Positions 12,732 to 20,669 of a stretch of 64,000 nucleotides of DNA are shown piece by piece (the first letter of the stretch is position 1; every line of letters starts with the position of its first letter). The notes under the pieces are model-generated. The model made no database searches. It saw nothing but the letters and a program-made list of their open reading frames with translations, and was not told the DNA's origin. This DNA comes from Polyangia bacterium (GTDB lineage: Bacteria > Myxococcota_A > Polyangia > JACRCY01). Location of the stretch: assembly GCA_036504295.1 (NCBI GenBank), contig DASXVK010000198.1:1581-65580 (forward strand), written 5' to 3'. A program made the translations under genes and the position numbers.

Positions 12732-12847
12732 GGCGCCCTCCGCCCTTGGCCCCGGCGCGACGGCCGAGCTCGCACTCGAATTCTTCCTGCCGACGAGTGA
12801 ACTGTCAACCTGGGAGGCCGCCAGCGGGCGTCAGCGAACAACGGCTG

Positions 12848-13348
12848 GTGGTCATTCTCCTATCGACCTCGGCCTGCCTCGAGAAGAACGCAAGGTATTG
12901 CGATGAAGAGGTCCACTGCGAGGACCCGCGGTGGCCCTACTGCGTCCTCGAGCGGCGCCAGTGCAACCCGTGGCCCGACGGGGGGCCGCCCCTCAGTGAC
13001 GCCTCGAGCGATGGCCTGAGAGGCGGCGACGCGGCCGATGCCCCGGCCGGGGACGCCGATGCGGCTCCGGACGCACCCTCGGGGGCTGACGCCGCACGCG
13101 ATTCGGCGACTCCTGACGGCACCGCACATGACGCGGCCGCCGATGTCGGGCAAGACGCCACGGCCCCAGTGGACGCCGCCGACGGCGGATCGGCGTCAGC
13201 CGCCACGGTAGTGGAGCTCACATCCGGCGGCGGAGTCGGGGCCGCCGGCGCGTTTCGCCTCTGGCTGAGCGTTGGCGGGCCGCAGCCGCACGGGCGAGGA
13301 TCGAGTGCCGACTACAACCTGAGCCTCGGGCCCGGCTCGGGACGTTAG
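12848..13348 (+). CDS. Small secreted/lipoprotein candidate with an N-terminal Cys motif and an Asp/Ala-rich region
   Basis: YCDEEVHCEDPRWPYCVLERRQC parallels YCDENTPCTDPAYPVCAVTWHEC at the N-terminus of the 57396 protein. It is preceded by ILLSTSAC (lipobox-like). The GTG 12848 start is tentative. Track ATG 12746 lies only 15 nt from the divergent gene start, in a lower-GC, non-coding-looking stretch. Confidence 0.5.
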   Translation: MVILLSTSACLEKNARYCDEEVHCEDPRWPYCVLERRQCNPWPDGGPPLSDASSDGLRGGDAADAPAGDADAAPDAPSGADAARDSATPDGTAHDAAADVGQDATAPVDAADGGSASAATVVELTSGGGVGAAGAFRLWLSVGGPQPHGRGSSADYNLSLGPGSGR

Positions 13349-13370
13349 CTGTCGGGCCGCGGAGGAACGC

Positions 13371-15263
13371 ATGACTACTCGGACGACCAACCTGCTGATC
13401 GCCGTGGCGATCATCCTCGGGAGCCACGCGCGGGCTCACGCCGCCGCACCTGCGCTGCTCCCGGTGCAAGGTCTACTCACCGACGGCGCCGGCGCACCGC
13501 TCGACGGTGCGCACGACCTCAAGTTCGCGCTCTTCGACGCCGCCAGCGTGGGCAATCTGCTGTTCACGCAGAGCGACGCTGGCGTGCAGATCGATCGCGG
13601 TCGCTTCATCATCTACCTCGGGCAGGGTGGGACGGCGCTGGATCTCGCGCTGTTCCGCGATCACGCGGCGCTGTGGCTGGAGGTCACGATCGACGGGACG
13701 CAAGTGGTCCAGCCCCGGTTCCGCCTCGCGACGGTGCCCTACGCGTCCTTCGCGCAGTTCTGCGGCGACGCCGCCACCGTGGGCGGGAACGGCGCAACCG
13801 CATTTGCAGCCTCCGGACACAGCCACGCCTGGAACCAGATCACGGGCATCCCGGCGAGCCTGCTCGATGGCGATCAGGACACTCTCGCCACCCTCGTGTG
13901 CGGCGCCGGCCAGGCGGTGAAGTGGGGTGGATCTGCGTGGGGCTGCGGTGATTTCGCTGCGGCCAGTCACCTTCATCCCTGGAGCCAGCTCACCGGCGTT
14001 CCGCCGAACCTCGAGGATCTCGCCCTCCTTGCTTGCTCGCTCGACCAGGTGCCGAAGTGGAACGGGACGGGCTGGGCCTGTGGCGCCGACGCGGACTCCG
14101 GCGGCGACATCACGGGCGTCACGGCCGGCACCGGGCTGTCGGGCGGCGGCCAGGCCGGGAGCGTCACGGTGAGCTTGGATCGGGCGTACACCGACGGGCT
14201 CTACTGGAAGCTCGGCGGGAACGGCGGCACGACCGCGGGCACGCACTTCATCGGCACGACTGACGGCCAAGCGCTCGAGCTCAAGGTCAACTCGGCGCGG
14301 ATGTTGCGGCTGGAGCCGGGCACCAACTCCATCACCGGCGTCGCGCAGAACTCGGTCACCGCCGGGGTCGCGATGGCGACCATCGCGGGCGGCGGCATGG
14401 CCAGCGCCCCGAACCGGGTCACGGATGATGGCGGCTTCGTGGCGGGAGGCAGAGGCAATCAGGCGGGCGACAATGCCGGCACGACCGTCGACAAGGCGTT
14501 TGCGACGGTGGGCGGGGGCGCCGGCAACACCGCCAGCGGGCTCCTCGCGACCATTCCGGGAGGCTCGCAGAACGTGGCCGCCGGTGACTACAGCTTCGCG
14601 GCCGGGAACCGCGCCAAGGCGAACAGCGCCGGCTGCTTCGTCTGGAGTGACTCGCAGGCCTCCGATGTGACCTGCGCCAACCCGGATCGCTGGGTGGCCC
14701 GAGCGAGCGGCGGCGTCTACTTCTACACGAACAGCGCCCTCTCGGCTGGGTCCTACCTGGCCGCGGGATCCGGAACCTGGAGCTCCGTGAGCGATCGCGA
14801 GCAGAAAAGCGGAATCGTCGCCACCGACCCGGAACAGGTCCTGGCGGCGCTGGAACAGGTGCCGGTGTCGACCTGGAGCTACAAGACCGAGCCTGGCGGA
14901 GTCCGCCACATGGGTCCCATGGCGCAGGATTTCCACGGTGCCTTCGGGCTCGGCGACAGCGAGCGACATATCGCCCAGATCGACGCCGATGGAGTCGCGC
15001 TCGCTGCCATCCAGGGGCTGCTCCGCGTAACACGCAGGCAAGACGCCCGCCTCGCGGCGCTCGGCAGCGAGAACGCCACGCTCGCCGAGCAGAACGCGGC
15101 GTTCGCCCGGCGGCTGGAGCGACTCGAGAGCGCGGCCGGGAGCGGCCCCGCATCAGGAGGCGGTTGGCTCTGGGGCGCTCTCGGCGTGGGCGCCATGGGC
15201 GTGCTCGTCGTGAGGCGGGGCCGCCGGAGCACGAGCTCGAAGCACGAGGAGGGCGGTCGATGA
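13371..15263 (+). CDS. Tail-fibre-like surface protein with a peptidase-S74 (intramolecular chaperone/autoprotease) domain and a C-terminal TM anchor
   Basis: 630 aa. It has a signal peptide (LLIAVAIILGSHARAHA). Phage-fibre HxH repeats follow (SGHSHAWNQITGIP, ASHLHPWSQLTGVP). Next come Gly/Asn-rich GG-N-ASG repeats. The S74 signature is SVSDREQKSGI...VSTWSYK...RHMGPMAQDFHGAFGLGDSERHIAQIDADGVALAAIQGL. The protein ends in a coiled coil and the anchor WLWGALGVGAMGVLVVRRGRR. Confidence 0.85.
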   Translation: MTTRTTNLLIAVAIILGSHARAHAAAPALLPVQGLLTDGAGAPLDGAHDLKFALFDAASVGNLLFTQSDAGVQIDRGRFIIYLGQGGTALDLALFRDHAALWLEVTIDGTQVVQPRFRLATVPYASFAQFCGDAATVGGNGATAFAASGHSHAWNQITGIPASLLDGDQDTLATLVCGAGQAVKWGGSAWGCGDFAAASHLHPWSQLTGVPPNLEDLALLACSLDQVPKWNGTGWACGADADSGGDITGVTAGTGLSGGGQAGSVTVSLDRAYTDGLYWKLGGNGGTTAGTHFIGTTDGQALELKVNSARMLRLEPGTNSITGVAQNSVTAGVAMATIAGGGMASAPNRVTDDGGFVAGGRGNQAGDNAGTTVDKAFATVGGGAGNTASGLLATIPGGSQNVAAGDYSFAAGNRAKANSAGCFVWSDSQASDVTCANPDRWVARASGGVYFYTNSALSAGSYLAAGSGTWSSVSDREQKSGIVATDPEQVLAALEQVPVSTWSYKTEPGGVRHMGPMAQDFHGAFGLGDSERHIAQIDADGVALAAIQGLLRVTRRQDARLAALGSENATLAEQNAAFARRLERLESAAGSGPASGGGWLWGALGVGAMGVLVVRRGRRSTSSKHEEGGR

Positions 15264-17188
15264 TGCGGCGCCGAGGCATGCTGGGTCTGCTGGTCATTGC
15301 GCTCGCGCTTCCGGGAACGTCGCAGGCCGCGAGCCCGGCGCTCCTCCCGGTCCGGGGCTTCCTGAGCGATGCCGCAGGCGTCCCCGTCGATGGCAATCAC
15401 GACTTGCGCTTCGTGATCTACGACGGGGTCGCCAGCGGGACGGCGCTCTTCACCGAGAACCACGCGGCGCTCGCGGTCAGCCACGGTGAGTTCGTGGCCT
15501 ACCTCGGCCAGGTGACCGGGAGCCTCGACCTCACGCTCTTCCGGGACAAGGGCGCGCTGTGGCTGGAGGTGACGATCGACGGCACGCAGGCGATCCAGCC
15601 CCGGTTCCGCCTGGCGACGGCACCCTACGCGGCCTTCGCCCAGTACTGCGGCGATGCCGTCACGCTGGGCGGGAGCCCGGTGACGGCGTTCGCTCAGTCG
15701 GTGCACACCCACCAGTGGACGGACCTCACGGGCGTGCCGGCCACCTTGCTGGATGGTGATCAGGACACGTTGGCGTCGTTGAGCTGTGCCAGCGGGCAGG
15801 TCGCCAAGTGGAACGCGAGCGCGTGGAATTGCGCCGATGATGCGAACTCCGGCGGGACCATCACTGGCGTCACCGCCGGCACGGGGCTCTCGGGTGGCGG
15901 CGCGTCCGGCGGGATCTCGGTCGCGCTCGACACCGCGTACACCGACGGCCGCTACTGGACGCTCGGCGGGAACGCCGGCACGACCCCCGGGACGCAGTAC
16001 ATCGGCACGAGCGACAACGTGGCGCTGGAGCTGCGAGTGAACAACACGCGCGCGCTCCGCATCGAGCCGATGAACGGCGGCGCGAACATCATCGCGGGAC
16101 ACCCGGCCAACTGGATTACGGCCGGAATCAAGTCTGCGACCATTGCCGGCGGCGGCAACGCGGTGTGGCCGAACCGCGTGACGGATGATGAGTCCACCGT
16201 GGGTGGCGGGGTCGGCAATCAAGCGGGAAACGCGTCGGGAAGTGCGCAAGATGGATATCGGGCGACGGTCGCGGGTGGGACCCTGAACACCGCATCGGGG
16301 CAGGGCTCGTTCATTGGCGGCGGGGAGTGGAACAGCGCGCGGGGGAGCGATGCGGCGATCGGGGGCGGCGGCTCTAATGACGCTTCTGGGGGGAACTCCG
16401 CCATCCTGGGTGGCTACCTCAACGCCGCGTCCGGAACATGGTCGACCGTTGCAGGAGGGCAATACAACACCGCGAGCGGGCAAGGTGCTGCTGTGCCGGG
16501 GGGAGCACAGAACGCAGCCTCGGGTTCCAACAGCTTCGCCGCCGGGTACCGCGCCAAGGCCAACACCGACGGTTGCTTCGTGTGGGGGGACTCGTCGAAC
16601 AGCGACGTGACCTGCACAACCGCGGACCGCTGGGTCGCGCGCGCTAGCGGCGGCGTCTACTTCTACTCGAACTCCGGCCTCACGGCCGGCTCCTACCTCG
16701 CGGCCGGCTCGGGAACCTGGTCCTCCGTCAGTGATCGCAACGAGAAGGCGGACATCGCTCCGGTGGAGCCTCGCCGCGTCCTGGAGGCCCTCGCTCGTGT
16801 GCCGGTCTCAACCTGGCGCTATCGGAGTGAGCGCCCCGGAGTCCGGCACATGGGCCCCATGGCGCAGGACTTCCACGCGGCATTCGGCGTCGGCGACAGC
16901 GAGCGGCACATCACCACGATCGACGCGGATGGTGTGGCCCTGGCAGCGGTCAAGGGGCTCCATGAAGTGGCGGCGGAGTCAAAGCGGGAGATCGTCGAGC
17001 TCCGGCGTGAGAACGGCGCGCTGCGCGCGCGGCTGGATCGCCTGGAGCAGCGGACGCTTCCCTGGACATCTGGCGCGGGCTATTTCTGGCCCGGAGCGGG
17101 CCTTCTGGGCATTGGTCTTGTTGTTGCTCGTCGGACGAAGGCGCGGCGAGGGCCAGCCGTCTTCGGGGCTACGGCCAGGAGACGGTGA
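15260..17188 (+). CDS. Paralogous tail-fibre-like protein with S74 domain and C-terminal TM anchor
   Basis: ATG 15260 overlaps the upstream stop. Signal peptide MMRRRGMLGLLVIALALPGTSQA. The order of modules matches the upstream gene: QSVHTHQWTDLTGVP, longer GG-N-ASG repeats, SVSDRNEKADI...RHMGPMAQDFHAAFGVGDSERHITTIDADGVALAAVKGL, a coiled coil, then FWPGAGLLGIGLVVARRTKARR. Confidence 0.85.
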   Translation: MMRRRGMLGLLVIALALPGTSQAASPALLPVRGFLSDAAGVPVDGNHDLRFVIYDGVASGTALFTENHAALAVSHGEFVAYLGQVTGSLDLTLFRDKGALWLEVTIDGTQAIQPRFRLATAPYAAFAQYCGDAVTLGGSPVTAFAQSVHTHQWTDLTGVPATLLDGDQDTLASLSCASGQVAKWNASAWNCADDANSGGTITGVTAGTGLSGGGASGGISVALDTAYTDGRYWTLGGNAGTTPGTQYIGTSDNVALELRVNNTRALRIEPMNGGANIIAGHPANWITAGIKSATIAGGGNAVWPNRVTDDESTVGGGVGNQAGNASGSAQDGYRATVAGGTLNTASGQGSFIGGGEWNSARGSDAAIGGGGSNDASGGNSAILGGYLNAASGTWSTVAGGQYNTASGQGAAVPGGAQNAASGSNSFAAGYRAKANTDGCFVWGDSSNSDVTCTTADRWVARASGGVYFYSNSGLTAGSYLAAGSGTWSSVSDRNEKADIAPVEPRRVLEALARVPVSTWRYRSERPGVRHMGPMAQDFHAAFGVGDSERHITTIDADGVALAAVKGLHEVAAESKREIVELRRENGALRARLDRLEQRTLPWTSGAGYFWPGAGLLGIGLVVARRTKARRGPAVFGATARRR

Positions 17189-20100
17189 CGAGGTCGCTCG
17201 GGCTGCGGCTCGACCAGGCGTCGGGGAAGTAGTCGTGCACCGTCGTCCCGGTGCCGTCGGCCTGGGCCCCGAATCGCGCCTGGCCCGGCAGCGTGAGCCC
17301 CGTCATGTCCGCGAGCGCGATGCGGAAGACGAGCGCCGCGGTGAGGCCGCTGACCGGGTCGACCGCGAGCGACGCGGGCGTCGTCGCCACGTCAACCCAG
17401 CCGGTTGATTCCAGCGTGGCCGCGCTGAGCACGCCCGCATCCCAGCGCAGCCGGAAGGTCTTGCCGGAGCCGCCAGCGGGCTCCGCCACGATGAGGCTCA
17501 CCTGCGCCAGCGCGGCGTCGAAGGCGGTCCAGCCGACAACGCGCCCGCGGAGCACCCCGTCGGCGACGTGGACGTAGAGCTGTCGGAGATCGACCACCGC
17601 GGCGCCGTCGTCGCCCAGCGGATCGGTCCCCGCGACCTGCGCGTAGATCGGCAGCACGATCTTGCGCACCCACGTGGTCGTCCCGTCGGAGAGGGTGAGG
17701 TTCAGGACGATCGTCTGATGGGCCAACGCGCCCGCGCCGACCTGGATGCGGAAGAACGTGCTCGAGCCGATCGCCTGACTGCCGGCGGGGATGGCGCCGC
17801 TGCCGAAGGTCGCGTGGGTGAAGGCGAGCGTGACTGACGCCGTGTTCTCGGCGGCCAACGTCAGGTCGCCCGTGACCACGCCCGCGGTCGGGCCGGAGCC
17901 GCTGTTCTGCACGTCGACCGTGAAATCGACCGTCTCACCAGGGTCCGGCAGGAAGTTGCCGTTGTCCGTGGCGGTCATGTTGACCGACTCGACCGACACC
18001 CCCGGCCACGGCACCGGCACCGCGACGTCGAGCAGCCACGTGGCCGTGCCGTCGGTGAGGGTGAGGACGAAGCTCAGCGGCTTGCCGTCGTTGAACGCGG
18101 TCGCGACGTCGAAGGTCCACGGGTCGCCGGCGATCTTCTGGCCCGTGACGAGAGGGCCGGCGCCGAAGGCGTGCGGCGTCGTCTGGTTGAGGCTGGCGCC
18201 GATCGCGGCGGCGGTGGCCGCGTCCTTGGGCGCGAGCGTGCCGGTGAGCGCCGCGGTCGTCGCGGCGCCGTCGTTGCGCAGCGTGACCGTGAGCGCGGCG
18301 CCCGTCGTGCCGGGCGCGAGGGTGGCCGGGGTGGTGACGATGCCGTCCACCTTCAGGTTCGGCGGCATCGGGAGCTGGATGTAGCTGGTCTTGTCGCCGG
18401 GCGCCGAGAAGGGGATGCCCTGCGCCTTGTAGCTGTTCGTACCGTAGAAGATGGTGAAGTCGTCGATCACGCAGCTCCCGCTGTAGTTGTGGTCGATCCG
18501 CAGGAACCACGGGTTCGTCACCGACGGCGGCAGGTGGGCCATCTGCGCCGAGATGTCGATGTCGTAGGTCCAGGAGCCGCTCGTGCCGGCGTTGCCGTTG
18601 AACCGGGTGCCGTTCCAGGTCGGGTTGACCGGATCGGCGCCGTAGCCGAGGAAGAGGTCGACGTCGCTCTCCCACGTGAGGGCCGAGGTCGTCATCTTCA
18701 CGTGCGCCGTCGCGCGCGCCCCGATGTAGAGGTCGATCGGGATGTCGACGTTGAGCTCGTTGACGTGCACCTTGAGCGCGACCGAGGTCTGGCTGTGCGA
18801 GCCGTCGACGGTGAGGCGGAACTGGTTCGCCGCGGTCTCGCCGCCCGCGGGGCACGCCGGGAAGCTGCCCGTGTCGGTCGTGATGGTGATCTTGGGGTCG
18901 GTGGTGGGCATGCTGAGGACGCCGGTGAGCGCCGGGCCGGTCTTGTCGCCGACGTTGCGCAGCTTGACCGTGAGCGCCACGTCGGTGTTGGTGCCGGCGG
19001 TGCCGCTCGGGACGATCGGGTTCGGCGTGGTCTCGATGGCGGCGAACTCCATGACCGGCTGCGGCGGGCGGATCTGGATCTCGTCGACCGTCCAGCGGTC
19101 CGCGCTCGAGCCGATGTAACGCAGCGCGAGGTACACCTTGGCGTGGCCCATGATGGGCGAGGTCGGCGGGATGAGGACGCTGCGGTGCACCCAGCCGGCG
19201 GCCTGCTCCACGGGCAGCGTGGGCGTGAACGCGACGTACCCCGGCGTCTGCGACGGGTCGGGGTTGTCGAACGCGTACTCGAGGGTGTGGCTCTGGGCCG
19301 CCGAGGCGTCCTCCTCGTACTGCCACCAGTCGAAGACGAGGCCCTCGGCCGGCGCGGTCGTCAGGTCGAGGCACGGCAGCACGAGGACGTCGTTGCAGTT
19401 GCCGCTCCAGCCGTGCTGGACGCCGTAGGAGCCGTCGTGCGGCCGGGCGGTGGAGACGGTCCAGCCGCAGCCGGTGACGCCGGAGTGGTACTCGCGCCAC
19501 CACCCGGGCAGGATGCCGCCCTCGAAGCTCTCGCGGGCGATGGGGGGCACGACGCAGGTCTCGGGCGCGGTCGTGAAGGTGTGGAAGCCCGTCGGGGCGT
19601 CGGCCGGATGGGTCGCGATGTTGCCCATCGGCGCGCTGTCCTTCGCCTCGATGTAGTAGTCGACGCCGGCGGTCGTGACCGCGCTGGCCGGGATCGTCTG
19701 CACCCACGGCGAGCTGGTGTTCGCCTGCGTCATCGTGAGCGAGGTCCAGTCGGTGCCGCCGGCGACGCGGTAGTAGAGCTTCACGCCGTTCGCGGCGATG
19801 CCGGTCTGGTCGTCGACCGTCGCGGTGACGGGCACGGGCCGGCTCTCGGGCTGGCCGTTGCCGACGGGCGTGTGCGTGATGACGGGCGGCTGATCGTCGC
19901 CGGGGCTGACGGTGAAGCTGAAGGCGGTGTCGGGCGCGTTCTTCGGCAGGGTCGAGGTGTGCGGCGTCGGCGAGTCCAGGTCGACCGCCTCGAGCCAGTA
20001 CTCGACCGACGGCGGCACGACCGCGCCGTTCGGCAGGCTCGCCTCGTAGGTGCCGTTCGTGCCGGAGGCGGCGAGGGGCAGGTCCTCCCACGCGGCCGCG

Positions 20101-20669
20101 CCGGGGGCGCGGTAGTGACACACGACGCTCGCGACGCCGCTGGCGTCGTTGACGGTGGCCCGGATCTGCACCGGCGTCCCGAGCACGCGATCGTTCGCGA
20201 CCGGCACGTGCGAGATGACCGGGCCCTCGGTGTCGCCGGTCTCGCCGGTGACGGTGAAGCTGAACGCCTCGGTCGGCGCCGCGACGGGCAGGGTCGCGGT
20301 CGCGCCCTTGCGATCGGTGGCCGCGAAGTAGTAGCTGATGCTCGGCGCCACGACCCCGGCCGCGGGGATCTCGCCCGTGTACGTGGTCGAGCGGACGCCG
20401 GCCTCCTGCAGGCTCACGGTCTGCCAGGCCGACGCGTGCGCCACCTGGTAGAAGACCGTGACCGACGCCACGCCGTCGGGGTCCTCGACCGTCGCGGTGA
20501 GCGTCACGGCCTGGCCCGCGGGCTGCGGGGTGGTGAGCGCGGTGTGGGTCACCACCGGCCCCTGGTTGGCGCTGGTGCTCGGGTTGGTGCACGAGGCGAG
20601 GCAGGCGCTGAGCAGCAGCGCGCAGCCGAGCCGAGACGAGATGCTGCCGGAGACTCGAATCATGTTCAT
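17169..20669 (-). CDS. Large (1166 aa) multi-domain lipoprotein
   Basis: Lipobox LLLSACLASC. Three approx. 100-aa N-terminal repeats, each reading P-V-I/T-H-T/V-P...D..GVASV...YY..A.D...P...F.FTV. A middle segment (RESFEGGILPGWW...) resembles choice-of-anchor-J/MAM-like domains. A P-domain-like segment follows (SGSCVIDDFTIFY). Its 3' end overlaps the convergent fibre gene by 20 bp. Confidence 0.85.
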   Translation of the reverse strand: MNMIRVSGSISSRLGCALLLSACLASCTNPSTSANQGPVVTHTALTTPQPAGQAVTLTATVEDPDGVASVTVFYQVAHASAWQTVSLQEAGVRSTTYTGEIPAAGVVAPSISYYFAATDRKGATATLPVAAPTEAFSFTVTGETGDTEGPVISHVPVANDRVLGTPVQIRATVNDASGVASVVCHYRAPGAAAWEDLPLAASGTNGTYEASLPNGAVVPPSVEYWLEAVDLDSPTPHTSTLPKNAPDTAFSFTVSPGDDQPPVITHTPVGNGQPESRPVPVTATVDDQTGIAANGVKLYYRVAGGTDWTSLTMTQANTSSPWVQTIPASAVTTAGVDYYIEAKDSAPMGNIATHPADAPTGFHTFTTAPETCVVPPIARESFEGGILPGWWREYHSGVTGCGWTVSTARPHDGSYGVQHGWSGNCNDVLVLPCLDLTTAPAEGLVFDWWQYEEDASAAQSHTLEYAFDNPDPSQTPGYVAFTPTLPVEQAAGWVHRSVLIPPTSPIMGHAKVYLALRYIGSSADRWTVDEIQIRPPQPVMEFAAIETTPNPIVPSGTAGTNTDVALTVKLRNVGDKTGPALTGVLSMPTTDPKITITTDTGSFPACPAGGETAANQFRLTVDGSHSQTSVALKVHVNELNVDIPIDLYIGARATAHVKMTTSALTWESDVDLFLGYGADPVNPTWNGTRFNGNAGTSGSWTYDIDISAQMAHLPPSVTNPWFLRIDHNYSGSCVIDDFTIFYGTNSYKAQGIPFSAPGDKTSYIQLPMPPNLKVDGIVTTPATLAPGTTGAALTVTLRNDGAATTAALTGTLAPKDAATAAAIGASLNQTTPHAFGAGPLVTGQKIAGDPWTFDVATAFNDGKPLSFVLTLTDGTATWLLDVAVPVPWPGVSVESVNMTATDNGNFLPDPGETVDFTVDVQNSGSGPTAGVVTGDLTLAAENTASVTLAFTHATFGSGAIPAGSQAIGSSTFFRIQVGAGALAHQTIVLNLTLSDGTTTWVRKIVLPIYAQVAGTDPLGDDGAAVVDLRQLYVHVADGVLRGRVVGWTAFDAALAQVSLIVAEPAGGSGKTFRLRWDAGVLSAATLESTGWVDVATTPASLAVDPVSGLTAALVFRIALADMTGLTLPGQARFGAQADGTGTTVHDYFPDAWSSRSPSDLVTVSWP

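Follow-up and report, generated by a model that had tools for sequence, protein, structure and literature searches.

Two adjacent genes on contig DASXVK010000198.1 of a Polyangia bacterium (assembly GCA_036504295.1) raise the question of what a self-cleaving domain of the phage type is doing in a bacterial protein that appears to be exported and held in a membrane. S74 chaperone-protease domains are textbook devices of phage tailspikes. The genes, ORF1 and ORF2, lie in a window of 64,000 nucleotides (contig positions 1,581 to 65,580, forward strand), here meaning the whole stretch of DNA that was analyzed and the frame in which positions are counted. They encode neighboring paralogs, 50% identical across their full length, each combining a predicted signal peptide, a fibre-like middle part, an S74 domain and, after it, a hydrophobic helix with basic residues. 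On balance, we lean towards the view that these are Sec-exported trimeric surface fibres resembling the MAT (mosaic adhesive trimer) fibres of the predator Bdellovibrio, tethered by their C-termini, which would trimerise and then release themselves. Maturation of a fibre by S74 is itself known from Bdellovibrio; new here, as far as the literature searched shows, are the transmembrane (TM) tail after S74, the distribution of that tail, and a small protein whose gene is linked to the fibre genes.

Both proteins carry an S74 domain and its catalytic pair

The initial annotation had read an S74 domain from the motifs of both paralogs, and the Pfam model PF13884 (Peptidase_S74, gathering score 22) bears this out, with significant matches of 36.3 bits in ORF1 (E 7e-9) and 40.6 bits in ORF2 (E 3e-10). 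The catalytic Ser and Lys (S-D-x-x-x-K) are present in both paralogs and invariant among homologues (40 of 40 aligned; 26 of 26 in the C-terminal alignment). The same annotation had placed a coiled coil after the domain. A helix is indeed found there, but it belongs to the intramolecular chaperone domain, of which it forms the helical half; PF13884 spans just the first ~58 residues.

An AlphaFold2 monomer model of ORF1, built from a 40-sequence alignment, has a mean predicted local distance difference test (pLDDT) score of 75.6, with the final 39 residues at low confidence. Confidently modelled parts are an N-terminal beta-sandwich (residues ~30-125), a beta-roll (310-460, pLDDT above 90) and the S74 region, which contains a 54-residue helix (residues 536-589) leading towards the tail; the intramolecular chaperone auto-processing (ICA) fold sits directly C-terminal of the beta-roll. 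A Foldseek comparison with the PDB matched the model to the MyRF ICA domain 7dc3 (probability 1.0, TM-score 0.53 on the target); the Foldseek PDB E-values all exceed 1e-3 because the query is multi-domain. This fold comparison was needed since the sequence links to solved S74 structures are weak: phmmer of ORF1 against the PDB returned weak UspA1 repeats only, with the S74 match absent, and a profile search against solved structures gave MyRF as its sole match (E 0.013).

A conserved hydrophobic tail follows S74 outside phages

Hydropathy finds hydrophobic stretches in ORF1 and ORF2 in two places only, at the N-terminus and at the C-terminus; the signal-peptide and TM calls made here combine hydropathy with the -3/-1 and positive-inside rules and with conservation. 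Both N-termini are signal-like by hydropathy and the -3/-1 rule, in agreement with the signal peptides reported initially, and a hydrophobic N-terminal segment is found in 106 of 114 Met-starting homologues. Conserved paired cysteines in both paralogs fit an extracytoplasmic protein.

The C-terminal hydrophobic helix with its basic residues, also described at the outset, is present in both paralogs and widely kept. A survey of S74 domains combined with a TM helix outside phages, which the initial annotation had called for, found a hydrophobic and basic tail after S74 in 62 of the 120 best database homologues, the others ending in the helix. The tail is also found in 27-28 of 92 complete S74 fibre genes (~30%), sampled from 80 loci of species-representative genomes. 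As a control, 80 phage S74 ORFs were taken from IMG/VR, and not one has such a tail next to S74. Among the genome loci, nearly all genes of the TM type belong to Chloroflexota (25-26 of the 32 genes there), the others being one in Actinomycetota and one in Polyangiaceae; those of Verrucomicrobiota, Planctomycetota, Proteobacteria, Eremiobacterota and the remaining phyla are all of the type lacking a TM helix. The tail consensus consists of the coiled-coil end, a Gly/Ser/Pro linker of ~12 residues, LPxxW-xLLGGL... and RRRR. Full-length relatives of 35-50% identity retain it, which argues for selection, and the predicted TM-plus-basic tail is a conserved feature, not a chance one.

A MAT-like N-domain and a variable fibre

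The part of each protein ahead of S74 begins with a domain of about 100 residues that is modelled as a beta-sandwich in ORF1. The NCBIfam model NF053851 (Bdello_MAT_N) matches ORF1 and ORF2 at 21.4 and 22.2 bits versus a cut-off of 60, and does so over part of the profile only (positions 116-159). Homology is better seen in the family as a whole, 20 of 40 members of which match NF053851 (best E 9e-11). By these profile matches, the predicted N-domains of ORF1 and ORF2 are homologous to the Bdellovibrio MAT N-domain, yet fall outside the Bdellovibrio subfamily.

Behind the N-domain come HxH modules, which were initially described as phage-fibre repeats. They are present in both paralogs, and in ORF1 the region (residues 123-211) has tblastn matches to phage tail-fibre and minor-tail proteins at E values of 8e-6 to 6e-4. 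The repeats of the head had been called YadA-like, a call that holds for the fold but not for any Pfam head model: Foldseek against the PDB matched the ORF1 beta-roll to the UspA1 and AtaA heads (3pr7, 3ntn, 3wp8) with probability 0.98-1.0, while the Pfam models for Phage_fiber_2, Hep_Hag and the YadA head, proposed earlier as a check, all failed to match ORF1 or ORF2 at E <= 1. Every motif that had been named in the two paralogs was nonetheless located where it had been placed.

The family is cellular and spans many phyla

A database search returned 1,846 proteins at E <= 1e-3 among 8,000 candidates, and a scan of one genome per species gave at least 509 confirmed relatives. Among the matches listed are proteins of Chloroflexota, Verrucomicrobiota, Planctomycetota, Alpha-, Beta- and Gammaproteobacteria, Eremiobacterota, Acidobacteriota, Nitrospirota, Armatimonadota, Actinomycetota, Bacteroidota, Rhodothermota and Polyangiaceae. 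Named relatives in the databases are called 'tail fiber domain-containing protein', and in the JGI names several homologues appear as 'trimeric autotransporter adhesin' and one as 'MYXO-CTERM domain-containing protein'. The fibre family is cellular, very large, and spans many phyla.

Phage relatives share parts of these proteins. In a tblastn search of 50,697 phage records (INPHARED), the S74 region (residues 474-583) matched 'chaperone of endosialidase' genes at 34-45% identity; no phage covered more than 17% of ORF1, the matches being domain-sized only. In IMG/VR, 78 of 80 matches were confined to the S74 domain and the N-domain was present in two of 80. A near full-length N-domain/S74 relative (40% identity, no TM) was seen on one IMG/VR 'viral' contig, 1.5 kb from a phage-type integrase (L093:5157-6383 (-), L093:7935-10034 (+)); some family members may travel on integrative elements.

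Foldseek of the ORF1 model against BFVD placed S74/YadA-head proteins of giant-virus metagenome bins first (E 4e-15 to 1e-12) and phage S74 fibres next. The bins with YadA-head and S74 matches were labelled Solivirus, Pithovirus LCPAC, Edafosvirus and Marseillevirus LCMAC. We rejected a viral origin on the basis of these structural matches, as they come from metagenomic bins with the same combination of head and S74 and carry no context information.

Genes around the fibres in the window are ordinary chromosomal ones, encoding molybdenum hydroxylase subunits, glycosyltransferases, hydrolases, kinases, two-component systems, enzymes of glycogen metabolism and an alpha-2-macroglobulin-like protein. 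The absence of phage genes nearby, remarked on initially, extends to the whole 64-kb window, where no phage, tailocin or extracellular contractile injection system (eCIS) genes were found, and to homologue loci from other assemblies, which are likewise chromosomal: more than nine such loci have a non-phage context, and around eight homologues no phage, tailocin or eCIS gene was seen. ORF1 and ORF2 are chromosomally encoded in a non-phage context. A scan of the window showed no secretion-system genes near the fibres.

A small gene is linked to the N-domain

Just upstream of ORF1 lies a small ORF for a putative lipoprotein. Its product has a signal ending in ...LLSTSAC, a Cys-rich stretch, an acidic linker rich in Asp and Ala, and a C-terminal three-strand motif of ~50 amino acids (13190-13345). 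Small secreted or lipoprotein ORFs that directly adjoin fibre genes carry the motif at seven further, independent loci, and in one additional case it forms part of a read-through fusion. A hidden Markov model (HMM) of the motif, run over the 4-kb flanks of the fibre loci, matched at 28 of 80 genome loci, always on the fibre strand, and gave zero matches on reversed sequences. The partner gene was present at 25 of 42 loci with the N-domain versus three of 36 without it (Fisher p = 1.7e-6), and all three of the latter have 5'-truncated fibre ORFs. Its presence tracks the N-domain rather than the TM helix, and a single partner gene often stands beside two or three fibre paralogs. In the window, the copy upstream of ORF1 is the sole significant match of a leave-one-out HMM (E 4.8e-5); the coding signal of this ORF from composition is weak.

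The canonical partner consists of a signal peptide followed by YDLSW..DGGGG..Y.L.GT.GQPDAG..Y.L.GGFW. Members of the family are predicted to be lipid-anchored in Polyangia; those of Chloroflexota usually end in a YLP-box (a 'putative sorting motif' in NCBIfam), and those of Verrucomicrobiota carry an extra domain after the motif. Ends of the form (I/V/L)YLP(L/V)(V/I)xR were seen in Chloroflexota proteins at L004:13147-13422, L009:8266-8610, L007:9285-9911 and L009:4194-5633; a literature search for 'YLP-box' found nothing. When seven partner proteins were searched, no Pfam or NCBIfam family matched, apart from the YLP-box end motifs and a sub-cut-off match to PamT. The latter reflects partial similarity of one partner to the N-terminus of PamT (E 2e-6, far under the cut-off), the proposed tip pilin of a candidate phyla radiation (CPR) pilus; a tail-fibre-like gene is found together with the operons for that pilus.

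We hypothesize that the small protein may be the docking partner of the N-domain. The authors of the MAT study lacked the surface element that is bound by the invariant N-domain, and the candidate partner fits that gap (PMC10769870). The linkage between N-domain and partner offers a concrete candidate for the surface element that holds MAT-like fibres on the cell.

Proposed tethering, trimerisation and release

Tethering followed by release, as put forward in the initial annotation, is the most economical reading of proteins that combine a signal peptide, a C-terminal stop-transfer helix with a positive flank, paired cysteines and the S74 dyad. For ORF1 and ORF2 every step is inferred, from export and topology through trimerisation and cleavage to docking and a role as adhesins, and the steps would connect as follows. 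The chain would be exported through its cleavable signal peptide, and the stop-transfer helix would keep the C-terminus in the cytoplasmic membrane with the Arg-rich tail in the cytoplasm (N-out/C-in). Three tethered C-termini could then meet within the plane of the membrane, where the membrane-proximal S74 domain and its long helix would trimerise and template folding of the beta-roll and shaft from the C- to the N-terminus. Ser474 and Lys479 (Ser491 and Lys496 in ORF2) would cut the chain just before the Ser, so that each chain contributes ~45 kDa to the mature fibre while a ~17-kDa chaperone-TM stub stays behind in the membrane. Finally, the N-domain would hold the fibre on the cell, possibly docked on the upstream small lipoprotein, with the variable head or tip pointing outward as the adhesive end. 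A tether after S74 thus suggests how a trimer that folds from C to N gets assembled outside the cytoplasm.

Chloroflexota and Actinomycetota are largely monoderm, and Polyangia are diderm. The bias of the TM type towards largely monoderm phyla may be understood in these terms: an untethered exported monomer would diffuse away from such cells before meeting two partners, and a diderm periplasm would confine monomers. Polyangia stand out as an exception to this pattern.

Several observations weigh against this reading. At 16 residues the hydrophobic segments are short, they are rich in Gly, and the topology call is heuristic. About half of the close relatives have no TM helix, so the tether must be dispensable in many lineages. 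Polyangia being diderm, release from the inner membrane would leave the fibre with the outer membrane still to cross. The N-domains of ORF1 and ORF2 score under the curated Bdello_MAT_N cut-off. On the side of the partner, the window copy is divergent (E 0.016-0.16 versus a canonical-only HMM), 17 of the 42 loci with an N-domain have no partner gene within the flanks, and the AlphaFold2 model of a canonical partner (P0123) is of low confidence (pLDDT 61, ~50 in the motif domain). A reciprocal check found an S74 or N-domain gene adjoining none of three partner-family genes, which indicates that the partner family, with at least 5,022 matches, all 'hypothetical' and lacking a Pfam domain, is broader than its association with fibres.

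Given that the predicted cytoplasmic tails are 5-25 residues long and domain-free, the TM helix might do no more than retain the spent chaperone fragment in the membrane after a genuine cleavage, for degradation or quality control, or set the time of release, with the fibres acting as soluble or vesicle-borne adhesins or as bacteriocin-like binders. Many relatives without a partner gene would be consistent with this, as would the Bdellovibrio S74 fibres, which appear to work without a TM helix and one of which, Bd3182, ends up at a distance from the cell (PMC10769870). Yet the concentration of the TM type in Chloroflexota and its near-absence from diderm phyla better fit retention of subunits before trimerisation, and both the conserved N-domain and its linkage to an anchored small protein argue for attachment to the cell. 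We regard such a role as unlikely, if the best of the alternatives.

Less likely again is that the tail works as a protein-sorting signal of the kind used by sortases, exosortases or myxosortases, or anchors the protein for good, so that the fibre would be attached by its C-terminus and S74 would serve as a folding chaperone only or stay uncleaved. The tails do share the generic layout of such signals (weak LPxxW, hydrophobic helix, RRRR) and have sub-threshold matches to MYXO-CTERM, LPXTG and other CTERM models, with MYXO-CTERM also the name given to one JGI homologue. The curated CTERM models stayed below threshold throughout, however: 14 of 40 tails match MYXO-CTERM with a best E of 0.005, and the best score of the ORF1 tail is 9.2 bits for MYXO-CTERM versus a cut-off of 20. 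Because all scores are under the cut-off, we rejected assignment of the tail to a known CTERM class. Neither ORF1 nor ORF2 has the Cys of MYXO-CTERM or a PEP or LPXTG motif, and the likeness of the predicted tail to sorting signals is of a generic kind only. The conserved neighbors of the fibres, in the window and at the homologue loci, include no sortase-like gene. With Ser and Lys invariant, moreover, cleavage would leave the fibre without its tail, and it could then not be anchored by its C-terminus.

That these are ordinary phage, tailocin or contractile-injection fibres, left by a prophage or carried as mobile-element cargo, is very improbable: the S74 and HxH matches to phage fibre proteins, the lower third-position G+C content (GC3) of the fibre genes (0.84-0.86, under the 0.93-0.98 of their neighbors) and the one N-domain relative near an integrase are outweighed by the lack of phage, tailocin and eCIS genes in 64 kb and at the homologue loci, by the domain-sized overlap with INPHARED (<=17% of ORF1) and IMG/VR (mostly S74 only), by the many relatives in genomes of many phyla, and by signal peptides and C-terminal TM helices that are incompatible with cytoplasmic virion assembly.

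Comparison with known systems

The closest characterised counterparts of ORF1 and ORF2 are the MAT fibres of Bdellovibrio bacteriovorus, which have a signal peptide, an invariant beta-rich N-domain of ~130 amino acids and a trimeric fibre, with a terminal S74 domain in 13 of 21 members (PMC10769870). Self-cleavage of one of them, Bd3182, at S782 was shown biochemically, and S782A blocks it (PMC10769870; Caulton et al. 2024). Since this cleavage is established and the N-domain is homologous, S74 maturation of non-phage surface fibres was already known, and the initial proposal of a new maturation route for such fibres was overstated. S74 in cellular fibres had been the subject of one earlier paper (PMC10769870), and our survey extends the family across many phyla. 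The two systems are alike in being chromosomal and non-phage, in the order of signal peptide, N-domain of ~100-130 amino acids, variable trimeric shaft or head and terminal SDxxxK S74 domain, and in having several paralogs that share the N-domain and differ in the middle. Unlike Bdellovibrio MAT proteins, the window proteins score 21-22 bits versus the cut-off of 60, have a YadA-like head, and carry a TM helix and basic tail; their host is a Polyangia metagenome-assembled genome, and the family reaches far beyond predators. A TM helix is never mentioned in the MAT paper or its supplements, and Bd3182 appears to have none, as a version fused at its C-terminus to mCherry is deposited in prey and a 632-922 construct is soluble (PMC10769870).

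MYRF and MrfA (PMC3742443, 7dc3) have the same succession of cargo, beta-helical stalk, ICA/S74 domain with a long helix, and TM helix (the last a heuristic call in the window proteins), and among solved structures it is the MYRF ICA domain that matches the fibre family best, by both profile and fold. In MYRF, trimerisation-dependent self-cleavage frees the N-terminal part from the membrane (PMC3742443). The topology is opposite, however: the ICA domain is cytosolic in MYRF and predicted to be extracytoplasmic in the window proteins, given their signal peptides. The cargo of the latter is a fibre with no Ndt80-type DNA-binding domain in Pfam searches, and nothing lies beyond the TM helix. The parallel with MYRF, in which a TM helix comes after the ICA domain, also makes the bacterial proteins a model for release from a membrane by self-cleavage. 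The MYRF papers treat phage relatives only.

Phage endosialidases, tailspikes and L-shaped tail fibres (endoNF 3GW6, T5 pb1 4UW8; MEROPS S74) likewise place a Ser/Lys S74 domain straight after a trimeric beta-structure and share the HxH modules, but have no signal peptide and no TM helix (0 of 80 in IMG/VR), assemble in the cytoplasm, and are encoded among virion genes. Trimeric autotransporter adhesins (YadA, UspA1, AtaA) have the left-handed beta-roll head of GG-N-ASG-type repeats; the window proteins differ from them in lacking the 12-stranded YadA_anchor beta-barrel translocator (no Pfam match), in having no Pfam head or neck match above threshold, and in ending with S74 and an alpha-helical TM segment.

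Taken together, these comparisons allow a broader picture, which we put forward tentatively and would call doubtful as a whole. A widespread, phage-independent surface-fibre pathway might join Sec export, a C-terminal tether and S74 trimerisation to a self-cleavage that hands the fibre, via its MAT-like N-domain, to a small anchored 'YDLSW...GGGG...GQPDAG...GGFW' protein acting as the receptor of the MAT N-domain. As a corollary, the ICA-then-TM cassette of MYRF could descend from such bacterial genes and not directly from a phage tailspike.

Coordinates, gene starts and neighborhood

Table 1. Features of the fibre locus in the window, and partner ORFs at other fibre loci
Feature	Position	Strand	Details and basis
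ORF1, S74 fibre protein, 630 amino acids	13371-15263	+	GGAGGA Shine-Dalgarno 7 nt upstream
ORF1 signal peptide (predicted), residues 1-24	13371-13442	+	MTTRTTNLLIAVAIILGSHARAHA, followed by AAP; predicted cleavage between AHA and A; hydropathy, -3/-1 rule
ORF1 N-terminal beta-sandwich domain (predicted), residues ~27-128	13449-13754	+	AlphaFold2 pLDDT ~86-96; NF053851 match
ORF1 HxHxW..(I/L)TG(I/V)P modules, two	13818-14090	+	HSHAWNQITGIP at 13818-13853 and HLHPWSQLTGVP at 13968-14003; Cys pair after each
ORF1 YadA/UspA1-like beta-roll head (predicted), residues ~300-460	14268-14750	+	AlphaFold2 pLDDT >90; Foldseek
ORF1 GG-N-A-G units, two clear	14514-14585	+	motif
ORF1 S74 domain, SDREQK	14790-15137	+	Ser474 at 14790-14792, Lys479 at 14805-14807; long helix residues 536-589
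ORF1 C-terminal hydrophobic helix and RRGRR	15165-15227 (helix 15165-15212)	+	WLWGALGVGAMGVLVV; hydropathy, 16 residues
ORF2, S74 fibre paralog, 642 amino acids	15260-17188	+	ATG overlaps ORF1 stop as ATGA
ORF2 signal peptide (predicted), residues 1-23	15260-15328	+	MMRRRGMLGLLVIALALPGTSQA, followed by ASP; predicted cleavage between SQA and A; hydropathy
ORF2 N-terminal MAT-like domain (predicted)	15335-15643	+	NF053851 match; aligns with ORF1
ORF2 HxHxW..LTGVP module, single copy	15704-15739	+	HTHQWTDLTGVP; motif
ORF2 head repeats GG-x-N-x-A-S-G, six tandem, 15 residues each	16274-16525	+	motif; weak Pfam UspA1_rep and LbR_Ice_bind
ORF2 S74 domain, SDRNEK	16730-17060 (3' bound approximate, from ORF1 homology)	+	Ser491 at 16730-16732, Lys496 at 16745-16747
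ORF2 C-terminal hydrophobic helix and RRTKARR	17081-17149 (helix 17081-17128)	+	YFWPGAGLLGIGLVVA; hydropathy, 16 residues
Small putative lipoprotein, candidate fibre partner	12797-13348	+	start uncertain: 12746 TTG, 12797 GTG or 12848 GTG
Partner ORFs beside fibres elsewhere	L001:10132-10452, L004:13147-13422, L006:5501-5986, L007:9285-9911, L008:5260-5787, L009:8266-8610		shared motif of ~50 amino acids

The start of ORF2 had initially been set at TTG 15164, which is probably wrong: the ATG at 15260 overlaps the ORF1 stop, comes after the Shine-Dalgarno sequence GAGGAGG and gives the protein a proper signal sequence, and is thus the likely start. Public annotation begins both genes late. The NCBI record starts ORF1 11 codons downstream (P0001, 619 amino acids, 'MAIILGS...'), cutting into the signal peptide, and ORF2 is started six codons downstream (P0002, 636 amino acids). 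With these starts, both signal peptides lose their charged n-region and would be missed by predictors.

The base composition of the window is ~73% G+C. GC3 falls from 0.93-0.98 in the flanking genes to the values given above for the fibre genes and to 0.78 in the small upstream ORF; the lowered GC3 at 12797-17188 may reflect lateral acquisition, as TM-type relatives are mostly from Chloroflexota, or simply the composition of Gly-rich repeats. Elsewhere in the window, no ORF between 5031 and 7876 passed the codon-position G+C filter of gene calling. Convergent with ORF2, at 17172-20669 (-), is a predicted lipoprotein of 1,166 amino acids with the signal ...LLLSACLASC and internal repeats of ~110 amino acids ('PVI(S/T)HTPV...'); it has no Pfam match and is not conserved beside fibre homologues. 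Mrp/Mnh cation-proton antiporter operons, none of which was found among the scanned window ORFs, lie within a few kb of the fibres at two unrelated loci, L001:12043-17955 (Polyangiaceae) and L004:17659-23150 (Caldilineaceae), which is probably a coincidence.

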